Source: Candidatus Nanohaloarchaea archaeon
GTDB lineage: Archaea > Nanohalarchaeota > Nanosalinia > Nanosalinales > Nanosalinaceae
Length of the DNA: 40,940 nt
Assembly (NCBI GenBank): GCA_046539225.1
Contig: JBKHHG010000002.1
Coordinates: forward strand, 1-40,940
Direction of reading: 5' to 3'
Positions 1 through 3,000 of this stretch are shown here, one piece after another. The position numbers were made by a program. Within the stretch, counting starts at the first letter, position 1, and each line of letters begins with the position of its first letter.

Positions 1-3000
1 CTTGCGTATCTTGAAGACCTAAGGTCTTCTGTCATAGAAAACCTTTCTCAAGGTTTTCGTATGGATCGAGCGTAACCAATCGTTATGAGCGCAGCGCTCT
101 AACCCCTGAGCTACTTTCCCTTGTAGAAAGAGTTTCCGGGTCAATCTTTTTTATTCCCAACTCCTGTACCGTTAGTTGACTGAGACTTTTCGGCTGTAGT
201 CGAGGCCTCCGACCCTGATAATCCCTTGCTCTCTTAATTCTTCAAAGGCCTCTGGCATAGGATCTGAGTCTGCTCTGTACATTTCATTGCAGCCGTAACA
301 GCCCACTACGTGCGGCTCGTCTTTTTCGTAGTCTTTAACGGTTTCATATACTGGCAGGACCGGCTCGCCGTCTAAAAGTTCCTGGCATTTGGCGTGGCCG
401 ACTGAAAGAACTTCGCACTGCTCGTTCAGGAAGTGGTTGATCGTTCTGACCTGTTCCTTTTCAGGCCTTTCTTTCACGTCATCGGTAATTCTTTCCAGTA
501 GCCTGACTTCTTCCCAGAACCGTTCTCCGTGTTCTTCATGCGGGTGCATGTGGATGGGTTCGCCCGGATTCGAACCGGGGATCTCCGCCAATTTGTGATT
601 GGCTTACCGATCTTCTGATCGGCGACCGCTAAAGGCGGTCATTGCGTATGGATCGAGCGTAACCAATCCTGTCAAGGCGGTGTCATAACCAACTAGACCA
701 CGAACCCTTTGAGGCCTATGTGTCTTGGTGTTCTGGTTAGGCTTAAATACCTCACCGAACAAGTACTGTTTGTTGGTTGAAGTGGCTCCTGAATGTAGTG
801 AATGCGGCGAGGACTTGCACGTGAACTCTGTTGACAGGCCTAACGTTGACTGGGTTAAAGTCGTGTGCTCGAGCTGCGGTCACGTCGAGAATGTTTCGAT
901 GATCCGGCTGGATTCAGATGTCCGTGCCAGGAAAGACAACAATTAAAATTTGTTCTTCAATACTCTTCTTTATGGTCAACAAATGGCATGACTACGAGAC
1001 GGGGCCTGATGCTCCGGAAGTTATCAACGCTGTAATTGAAAATCCGACAGGCACGCAGAACAAGTACGAGTACGACAAGGACAAGGAATCAGTAGTTCTG
1101 GACAGAGTACTCTACGCTTCTATCAACTATCCTGGCGACTACGGGTTCATCCCACAGGCATACTACGAAGACGGCGACCCGATGGACATCCTCGTCCTGA
1201 CAACGCACTCAACGTTCCCAGGCTGCGTGATGGAGGTTCGACCGGTTGGAATCCTGTACATGGACGACGACGGGGAACAGGACGACAACATTATCGCAGT
1301 ACCGGAGGAAGACCCGCGCTGGAACAATGTTGAAGACCTGGACGATGTCAACGAGCACAGAAAGAAGGAGATCGCAGAGTTCTTCGCGACATACAAGAAC
1401 CTGGAGCCTAAGAAAGAAGTCGAGATCGAGGGCTGGGGCGGAAAAGAAGAAGCCCATGAAGCAATCGAGAAGTCCCAGAAGCTTTACGAAGAAAACTTTG
1501 AGTAAAGGCCTCAAACCTTTATTTTCTCTTTTATTGTGTTTTCTACCTGAATATTTTTAGTACTTCTTCCGTGTAGTTCTCCGCTGATTCGTCATAATAG
1601 AAGATGAATGCCTCTCCGTCTTTTACCGAGTGAACGGGATCGTTTCCTTCGACTTTTTTCAGGGTGTAGGTCTCTCCCTATTTCCAGCCTCTTGGGATCC
1701 GGGTTTTATTCTCTACAAGTTCGTTCATTTTTTCCTTGGCTTCTTCAAAGCTTGAAGAAGGTTTGAACCATTTTACGCTGCGGCTGTCGCTGTAGAAGCC
1801 GGTGATATCGCTGTACTCCGGCATTTTTACTCCTTCAACGTTACCGGTACGCCTTTTTCCTTCAATAGTTCGACTTGCTGCTTTACGAAGTCTTCTTCGT
1901 TGCTTCCTTTTGTGGCGACCATGTAGACCTGTGCGTCTCCTACAGGCCTCATGACCCTTCCTGCTCTTTGAGTCGCCTGTCTTCTTGAGCCTCCTTGGCC
2001 TGACATCACTATCCCTACTTCTGCGTTTGGAAGGTCGAGGCCTTCGTCTCCGATCCTTGAGACTATCATTGTGTCGAGTTCTCTGTCCCTGAACTCTTCG
2101 AAGTACTCCTCTCTTTCATCGAAACCGGTTTCTCCCGAGATGAACGGTATGTCGTATCCCTTGGAAAGGTCTTCTCCCTGGTCAAGCCAGTCGCAGAAGA
2201 TCAGGGTTTTCTTGCCTTCGTACTCTTCCAGCAGGTCTTCGAGAACCTGTTTCTTGGCCGGGTTTTTCGATGCGATGATCGCCTTCTTGATGCCTGAGGC
2301 CTCCTCGTACCTGTGCCTGTAGAAGTCGGATGCCCAGTCGACCATCCTGATCTCAACATCCGGCTTCACAACGTGACCCTCCGAAAAGAAACGGGCCCAG
2401 TCGCCGCCGATCTCTCTCCCGATTAACGCGAAGATCTCTCTTTCCTTCGTGTCTTCTCTCACAGGTGATGCGGAAAGGCCTATACGTCTCGTGGACTGGA
2501 GGGAGGCGGTCTTCCTGAAGAGATCTGATGGGATGTGGTGGACTTCGTCGAAGATGATGAGTCCCCAGTCCTTCCGGAAGAGGCTGGTTTTTTCTCCCGC
2601 GATGTGGTACGTCGCTATCGTCACATCGTTCATCTCTTTCTCGTCGCCGTGGTACTCCCCGATCTGATCCTCTGTTACTGTGGTCTTGTCAAGTATCTCA
2701 CGTTTCCACTGGTTCACCAGGTTCCTCTGCGGAACGAGTATCAACGTGGGTGCGTCGATCTCCGCCATCAGGCCTATGGCTGTAACGGTCTTTCCGGAAC
2801 CTGCAGGATTCGCCAGTACCGCAGCCTTTTCGGAGTAGGCCTTTCCGACGTATTCTTTCTGGTATTCGCGGAGCTCCATGTCTCTGAGGTCGGCGCCGAT
2901 TGACTCTTCTACCTCCCGGAACTTTGAGTTGTCTTCAACCGGGTAACCTTTTTTCAGCAAGGCCTCCTTGATTTCCGCCCTGCTCTTTGAACCCATCGCG

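Follow-up and report, generated by a model that had tools for sequence, protein, structure and literature searches.

Hairpin modules shared by tRNA introns, tRNA trailers and gene spacers of nanohaloarchaea and other DPANN archaea: probable mobile mini-elements behind part of the introns

The window analysed here, a stretch of 40,940 nucleotides at the start of contig C2 of a Candidatus Nanohaloarchaea archaeon genome (termed G000; assembly GCA_046539225.1), opens with two interrupted tRNA genes separated by an ORF (Table 1). In the related genome G001, these Met and Val genes lie 6 nt apart. The elongator tRNA-Met(CAU) gene is cut by the contig end, and over 43 nt its 5' exon shares 97.7% identity with the C/D-intron-bearing Met genes of G001 and G003. 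The first-pass annotation had placed its insert at C2:2-80 and had named it the intron of the gene. Both points need correction, as the insert starts at position 83, next to a 5' exon occupying positions 120-84, while neither the 3' exon nor the C/D-guide core of relatives is contained in the assembly. Reading positions 1-83 as a complete intron, with a 3' exon from position 7, yielded by eye only 2 of the 4 central pairs and was rejected, a further ground being that the identical tail closes the trailer copy on contig C27. To the eye, the window Met intron resembles the start of the Thr(CGU) intron of G007. As to the tRNA-Val(GAC) gene, the 3' end of its intron pairs with the 5' arm of the module (an 8-bp h' helix) and with exon nucleotides 32-35 (3 of 4 pairs), and this intron is absent from G001, G003 and G004.

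Table 1. Features at the start of the window (coordinates in nucleotides of the window; a dot marks features given without strand)
Feature	Position	Strand	Remarks
Resumed module tail	1..12	-	Last letters GATACGCAA at contig end; 5-nt ATACG from before the nested hairpins repeated
Visible 5' part of Met(CAU) intron, cut by contig end	1..83	-	Composite module A with two nested hairpins
Nested hairpin 2, GAAGACC...GGTCTTC type	13..29	.	From sequence; also in C27 trailer
Nested hairpin 1, GAAAACC...GGTTTTC type	37..58	.	From sequence; also in C27 trailer
Module A head in Met intron, from intron +2	58..82	-	Left arm 82-77 (6 nt), loop GTTACGCT 76-69, right arm 68-63, then tail start
5' exon (nt 1-37), elongator tRNA-Met(CAU)	84..120	-	From sequence and alignment; anticodon 87-85
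125-aa ORF between Met and Val tRNA genes	175..549	-	No Pfam family
tRNA-Val(GAC) 3' exon	555..590	-	
tRNA-Val(GAC) intron, 79 nt	591..669	-	Module A at +1, then two hairpins; fold z -3.6
Module A head and tail in Val(GAC) intron	642..669	-	87.5% over 48 nt to Asp trailer of G010
tRNA-Val(GAC) 5' exon	670..707	-	

Our own census of G000 revealed 27 complete tRNA genes, 16 of which harbor an insert of 50-196 nt at position 37/38, and two further genes that end at contig ends (Met-CAU on C2 and Ala-UGC on C30), in agreement with the earlier count of 18 interrupted genes out of 29. No additional tRNA gene was recovered from G000 with the mature tRNAs of its relatives as queries, and a loose ARAGORN run, which returned 105 mostly false genes, was discarded. 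The statement that all inserts sit at 37/38 is correct within G000 but does not extend beyond it, since the family member G014 displays a D-loop insert with clean BHB geometry. For the source of the inserts, the match score of each of the 18 was compared with the best of 60 shuffles. Eight inserts beat every shuffle against the non-tRNA DNA of G000 itself, and eight did so against 2.4 Mb of relatives' DNA. The union of both tests amounts to 10 of 18, yet a tested non-intron relative remains for 8-9 rather than 10, because the Arg-UCU match is the intron of another tRNA and the Ile-UAU match is marginal. The assertion that at least 10 introns are built of modules found elsewhere must thus be lowered to 8-9 of the 18, and 9-10 of them, roughly half, are devoid of a tested non-intron match.

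The individual similarities reported earlier were reproduced: (i) the Met(CAU) insert matches the Arg(UCU) trailer (C27:1006-1081) at 85.2% over 81 columns, scoring 81.5 bits against 34.6 for the best shuffle (n = 60), (ii) the Val-GAC insert matches the Ser-CGA trailer at 96% over 26, (iii) the B block occurs in the polD, dnaK-dnaJ and PDH spacers, and (iv) in the congener G004 the Arg(UCU) gene region shows 96.7% identity over 122 nt, the gene being intronless in G001, G002 and G003. The Arg-UCU intron of G000 is also 84% identical over 58 nt to the Gln-UUG intron of G014; judged from these alignments, allele transfer or intron transposition would fit it better than a fresh module insertion. 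In the accessible part of PMC10266531, nanohaloarchaeal tRNA introns appear as counts alone.

Both window inserts open with the same element, module A, which consists of an NNAYTS arm, the loop GTTACGCT, an SRRTNN arm and the tail RYACGCAA, followed by a variable hairpin. The six pairs of its head hairpin, which covary, are formed in 136-142 of 142 distinct copies. This includes the two outer pairs, which the search pattern left free and which are formed in 138 and 142 of the 142 copies, against shuffle maxima of 105 and 118, respectively. Because the pairs hold and G-T outnumbers A-C in them by 84 to 4, the structure belongs to one strand. A second head, module B (an AACTY hairpin followed by ATCATC), often stands head-to-head with module A over a common hairpin, and extra hairpins may be nested inside the loop or arm of module A, as in the window Met insert. 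Within Rfam 15, whose models include group I introns and small ribozymes, no family corresponds to the module in positions 1-3000 of the window or at nine further loci, only tRNA and rRNA exceeding the cut-off. Readings as HDV-like, hammerhead, pistol or K-turn motifs, drawn from consensus sequences, found no support in Rfam.

The module A pattern was detected in 24 of the 41 genomes of the order, belonging to four families (1 match for the reversed control), and in none of the four congeners. It is also patchily present in Woesearchaeota-related genomes: among the relatives of G042, 15 of 151 carry module A and three of them hold 9-14 copies, the number of matches per genome ranging from 0 to 14. 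A scan of species-representative genomes yielded at least 118 stretches. All 80 titles among the matches listed are archaeal and comprise Nanohaloarchaeota, Woesearchaeota/Nanoarchaeota, one Iainarchaeum, unclassified archaea, and records labelled Methanosarcinales; for one of the latter, whose relatives are the 151 genomes above, the label is doubtful, because a Woesearchaeota-titled genome is found among them. Bacterial copies may exist beyond the matches listed. Metagenomes contained at least 124 stretches with the pattern, while viral contigs gave no full-pattern match and four short, chance-like ones without the tail.

Copies are located at tRNA ends on either strand, at protein gene starts and at the base after a stop codon; the context classifier applied to the 142 copies is rough, with 64 falling into "other", some of which are tRNA-linked by eye. 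Direct repeats of 14-70 bp accompany 43 of 205 module A copies, compared with 0 of 130 and 0-3 of 205 in the controls (repeats ending at most 12 nt from the head and recurring past an insert of 31-169 bp; copies with full flanks only). The other 162 copies show no detectable duplication, and the intron copies themselves display no target duplication. Within G000, the 3' end is duplicated behind an insert for 7 of the 27 tRNAs and the 5' end for two, and the Ser-CGA and Phe trailers of congeners lack the inserts. In copies whose hairpin begins with the tRNA's own last bases, both outer pairs are nevertheless formed in 16 of 17 cases for module A and 6 of 7 for module B (7.0 and 1.9 expected, respectively), which suggests joining by microhomology or guide pairing. 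The module also starts inserts at three positions within tRNA genes, namely the anticodon loop, the T-loop and the D-loop. Overall, the mobility of the module is well supported by target duplications, occurrence in both orientations, patchy bursts and nested insertions.

In their central helix the inserts conform to the bulge-helix-bulge geometry of archaeal tRNA introns. With the canonical register (a 4-bp central helix and 3-nt bulges), 72 of 96 introns have a perfect helix and 93 have at least three pairs, in a set where related-genome copies and 15 Met introns are not independent. Shifted registers gave 0-5 perfect helices, and swapping introns between tRNAs gave a mean of 12.5. For G000, nine helices are perfect and 15 of 16 have at least three pairs. 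T-loop inserts opening with module A at other DPANN loci (filtered set) showed a perfect helix in 31 of 35 cases, and in none when the register was shifted. The intron-side h' helix is less constant: at least 2 bp in strict register were found in 50 of the 96 introns and in 6 of the 16 of G000, and the earlier finding of a strict hBHBh' motif in 4 of these 16 was reproduced. G000 encodes RtcB and a single-unit EndA of 171 aa with a 6-residue C-terminal insert relative to the M. jannaschii enzyme (1a79). L3-loop alpha4 EndAs of DPANN archaea are linked to more disrupted tRNA genes in the accessible text of PMC5829648, and the relaxed h' motifs seen here fit the enzymes described there. Each interrupted tRNA gene of the complete genome G018 is the sole copy, which indirectly favours removal of the inserts from the transcript. 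The RNA contigs matched at one locus of that genome (L144; three runs of one study) covered no tRNA gene and displayed no joints. From sequence, the module-bearing inserts are presumably spliced out as tRNA introns.

With regard to how module and intron came together, both routes occur: some copies make new introns and others colonise old ones. All 26 Met introns recovered from relatives bear a C/D-type guide directed at C34 (24 detected by regular expression, 2 by eye) and none contains module A, which in the Met intron of G000 begins at +2. Because the guide intron is ancestral in all 26 copies, the Met locus represents a module colonising an existing intron. Similarly, in G010 and G018 the Trp intron has the module at +1 and has kept the guide. 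The relatives' Met introns and all Trp introns possess C/D-like boxes and a guide whose sequence is complementary to that of the anticodon arm and which is aimed at C34; that the archaeal tRNA-Trp intron is a box C/D guide is stated in PMC4090602. In contrast, eight introns of G000 (Val-GAC, Val-UAC, Thr-GGU, Leu-CAA, Leu-UAA, Arg-GCG, Arg-UCG and Ser-UGA) are absent in both congener clades. Since both clades are intronless, a single gain is a more economical reading than a pair of losses when placed on the aIF5B tree (one gene, quick search, 30 of 41 genomes, key node 88), and the eight look like lineage-specific gains, with precise intron loss a possible alternative; four of them have a tested non-intron match. 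The Thr-GGU and Lys-CUU introns vary inside several genera (50 genomes, match coordinates only). De novo intron creation is thus supported for part of the set, i.e. these eight introns and the T-loop inserts with the same module, and the Val(GAC) intron is a better example of gain than the window Met locus. Overall, the first-pass observation largely holds and may be regarded as confirmed in part. Its interpretation, that introns arrive by insertion of small mobile modules, is partly supported: it stands for the mobility of the modules and for new introns in part of the set, but not for the Met(CAU) locus on which it had been illustrated.

It is unlikely, in our opinion, that introns act as a safe harbour only, i.e. 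that they are all old and were precisely lost in many lineages, modules merely piling up in them as they do in neutral spacers. Such an account is true for Met and Trp, and it agrees with the widespread Asn-GUU and Ile-UAU introns (short forms of 16-54 nt) and with the identical last 6 nt of the Val-GAC introns of G000, G008 and G014. However, it requires two losses per gene for eight genes within one genus, and it is at odds with the unrelated intron types found in the same tRNA of different genomes, with module heads that, for 13 of the 19 anticodon introns, lie at +1 instead of being scattered, and with the 35 T-loop inserts that open with the module.

An RNA route, in which RtcB mis-ligates excised introns or hairpin RNAs to tRNA halves or 3' ends and reverse transcription writes the products back, seems to us rather improbable. 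The insertion points do correspond to RNA cut sites (after N37 and after N73), the G-U pairs are strand-specific, and introns of different tRNAs can be nearly identical, as with the Arg-UCU and Gln-UUG pair above; but copies also lie antisense to tRNA genes, after stop codons and, with duplications, at protein gene starts, and no reverse transcriptase exceeded the cut-off in five of five nanohaloarchaeal genomes. There is still less to be said for the module being a functional RNA signal for processing, stability or protein binding, under selection beside tRNAs and mRNA ends. While its loop and tail are invariant across distant archaeal groups and it is located behind tRNA ends and stop codons, it was not found in any of the four congeners or in 136 of the 151 other genomes searched, its loop is broken by nested inserts, and it shows target duplications and no Rfam family. 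Finally, trailers as eroded attL/attR sites of integrase-driven islands, with introns having arrived on attP sites, would account for duplications with a T-loop start, a feature of tRNA-targeting integration, and such a route is proposed for Caldiarchaeum in the accessible part of PMC3293823, but this is scarcely credible for copies that involve many isotypes, sit at either gene end and also at protein genes, and have repeats of variable length, in genomes of which 3 of 5 lack an integrase, and with viral contigs yielding only the short matches mentioned above.

We consider instead that the modules are probably non-autonomous, REP/MITE-like single-strand DNA mini-elements (about 30-170 bp) of DPANN archaea, filtered by BHB splicing, which display the head structure, strand-specific pairing, variable duplications, nesting, both orientations, patchy bursts and BHB fit described above, and for which we infer a single-strand intermediate, a microhomology step and a selection filter. 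The element would move as single-stranded DNA, with stem-loop junctions, chiefly those of tRNA genes, as its entry sites. Through microhomology or guide pairing it would take up the last 1-2 bases of the target, which would complete the foot of the hairpin, and synthesis would rejoin the template 0-70 nt upstream, leaving a duplication of variable length. Selection would then spare harmless outcomes only, namely (i) copies behind the 3' end of a tRNA or close to a gene start, where the duplicated end leaves the gene intact, (ii) copies in spacers, and (iii) copies inside a tRNA whose last 6 nt form a bulge-helix with the exon, such that EndA and RtcB could remove them as an intron. Self-pairing element ends could provide the h' helix, and the loop-bearing single-unit EndA probably accepts relaxed motifs. 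Copies would thereby have made the new Val-GAC and Thr-GGU introns and the T-loop inserts, and would have settled in old introns, right at their 5' splice junction, in the window Met gene and in Trp.

As for the mobiliser, our best guess is a trans-acting HUH-like activity or a template-switch activity of replication or repair, and not a DDE transposase. A Y1 transposase was present in 1 of the 41 relatives, and none of the five Y1 loci inspected bore module ends, bar one neighbouring tRNA intron. Pfam searches of 105 of 117 flanking ORFs identified one adjacent Y1 gene, an ordinary IS200-like one with its own hairpin. Neither RAYT nor GIY-YIG exceeded the cut-off in any of five genomes, many of the genomes searched for a mobiliser being incomplete, and an integrase and Cas1 were each found in 2 of 5. 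Reverse transcriptase was over the cut-off in none of the five nanohaloarchaeal genomes and in 1 of 5 other genomes. The 734 flanking ORFs contained no common neighbouring gene family beyond one tRNA-linked family at 11 loci. More tentatively, module A may serve as the recognition end of a DPANN mini-transposon shared across phyla, an archaeal "introner". Its undescribed single-strand enzyme would pick sites through pairing with the last bases of the target, and the BHB boundary that it builds itself would let the host's tRNA splicing machinery remove it and so hide it from selection.

No earlier description of the module element was found in the literature searched, a scope that left most subscription journals and supplements outside. 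In their accessible parts, a preprint on Nanobdellota (10.64898/2026.05.13.725050) deals with missing tRNAs and does not report such inserts, and a 2026 preprint on Asgard tRNAs (10.64898/2026.10.13.758758) leaves open the route by which intron DNA enters archaeal tRNA genes. The DPANN mini-element linking free repeats to tRNA introns is real and apparently undescribed. Mobile hairpin copies that survive where the splicing enzyme can cut would offer, in these tiny symbiotic archaea, a concrete answer to the origin of tRNA introns, with one sequence caught in every state, as a spacer, a duplicated tRNA trailer, the start of an old intron and a whole new intron, the last at three sites of the tRNA. 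The question of how introns arrive therefore becomes testable, with the 28-nt head, cultivable nanohaloarchaeal co-cultures and the small EndA. The proposal predicts a mobilising activity in DPANN archaea and helps explain the "missing" tRNAs of their genomes; if the "introner" reading were true, a source and a mechanism for the gain of tRNA introns in archaea would be named for the first time.

Among known systems, PMC3116915 and PMC3733652 describe bacterial REP, BIME and REPIN sequences which, like the module, are short, strand-specific imperfect palindromes with a conserved tag or flank, forming head-to-head dimers and mosaics. They share with it an extragenic location, a location behind stop codons and bursts in some genomes, and REPs of the CGTC type are likewise given there without a known transposase. 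Unlike the REPs described there, the module head lacks a GTAG or CGTC tag and its conserved part is the loop plus the 3' tail. Furthermore, no RAYT gene flanked by module copies was found (several genomes being incomplete), matches number 0-14 per genome instead of tens to hundreds, and the module shows long variable duplications, a strong preference for tRNA genes and copies kept as BHB introns. The PATEs and SMRs of Haloquadratum walsbyi, as far as described in the accessible part of PMC3119063, are comparable in being archaeal, transposase-free, 50-110 bp long and nested in palindromes, with mobilisation partly unexplained; they differ in lacking target duplication and, for SMRs, in having terminal inverted repeats, and that part does not report them as tRNA introns. 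An IS200/IS605-derived PATE does not match the repeats at 43 of 205 module copies, nor the five Y1 loci without module ends. A DDE-type MITE would have terminal inverted repeats and leave short duplications of fixed length and not of 14-70, and paired ends were confined to the intron copies and a single larger form of the module. A target-primed retroelement is disfavored by the host reverse transcriptase counts (0 of 5 and 1 of 5 genomes).

Duplications of tRNA 3' ends are known as attL/attR sites of integrative elements, and also as casposon target duplications and E. coli tRNA-linked repeats. The module resembles these systems in the duplicated tRNA 3' end behind the gene, but its inserts are 30-170 bp long, gene-free, common to many tRNAs, and found at both gene ends and at protein genes. 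Box C/D guide introns are also known from archaeal tRNA-Met; guide introns of this kind, in Trp and Met, are the host of the module and not its source, the guide part of the G000 Met intron being absent from the assembly. Transposed tRNA introns of Thermoproteales have reportedly been described by Fujishima et al. in 2010. Like the module-bearing introns, the Thermoproteales introns are, according to PMC4090602 and the Asgard preprint, similar across tRNAs and positions and constrained by the BHB, and the mechanism of their transposition is given in the former as unknown. Unlike them, the module is present with the same sequence beyond introns, where insertion footprints accompany it; this provides both a source and a DNA-level signature.

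The Arg(UCU) tRNA gene of the genome under study (G000), taken together with its intron, shares 96.7% identity over 122 nt with its counterpart at locus L106 of the congener G004, while aIF5B is 75% identical between the two genomes and the regions flanking this tRNA gene did not align. These sequences suggest that an intron-bearing Arg(UCU) allele may possibly have been transferred recently.

The intron at 37/38 of the G014 tRNA-Gln(UUG) gene, which the tRNA census had missed, is 84% identical to the G000 Arg(UCU) intron. Its second insert, 31 nt in the D-loop, forms a clean 4-bp helix and a 5-bp h' helix. 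A tRNA-Ile with anticodon UAU, unusual in archaea, was found in G000 and in relatives, and its gene carries an intron in each of the six genomes in which it was detected. The Met(CAU) intron of G021 is unusually long (about 205 nt, taken from coordinates only).

The trailers of Leu-UAA and Tyr in G000, Arg-GCG in G005, Ser-CGA in G008 and others hold a 50-55-bp insert type that includes the duplicated tRNA end in imperfect inverted copy and a GAAG...CTTC hairpin, a direct-inverted-direct layout. Leu and Tyr genes also carry it in antisense form at their 5' ends.

Outside tRNA genes, the hairpin module (module A) immediately follows the stop codon of a TFB-like gene in G000 and of ribonucleotide reductase genes at L255 and L267, the stop codon itself completing the hairpin foot in each. 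G041 holds 14 module copies, many of them located centrally in a larger repeat of ~250 bp whose inverted ends are long and imperfect (L248, L261, L314, L307, others). At L279, the reading frame of a 439-aa ORF runs, at its start, through three 90-bp module units arranged in tandem.

Coordinates of the features described
Feature	Location	Strand	Position
Acidic ORF, 125 aa	window 175-549	-	between tRNA-Val(GAC) and tRNA-Met(CAU)
Nre repair gene	window 19174-20322		
PD-(D/E)XK nuclease and UvrD helicase-nuclease genes	window 28886-34077		side by side
Module A	G000:C3:23685-23790		after TFB-like gene
tRNA-Arg(UCU)	G000:C27:873-1005		
tRNA-Ile(UAU)	G000:C36:1706-1833		
tRNA-Met(CAU)	G021:C1:92052-92330		
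tRNA-Gln(UUG), two inserts	L194:12250-12600 (G014)	-	
ORF, 439 aa	L279:1425-2741		

Within the window, the acidic ORF matched no Pfam family; the gap that it occupies measures 6 nt in the congener G001 and is filled by different inserts in other genomes. The adjacent nuclease and helicase-nuclease genes constitute an AddAB-like pair.
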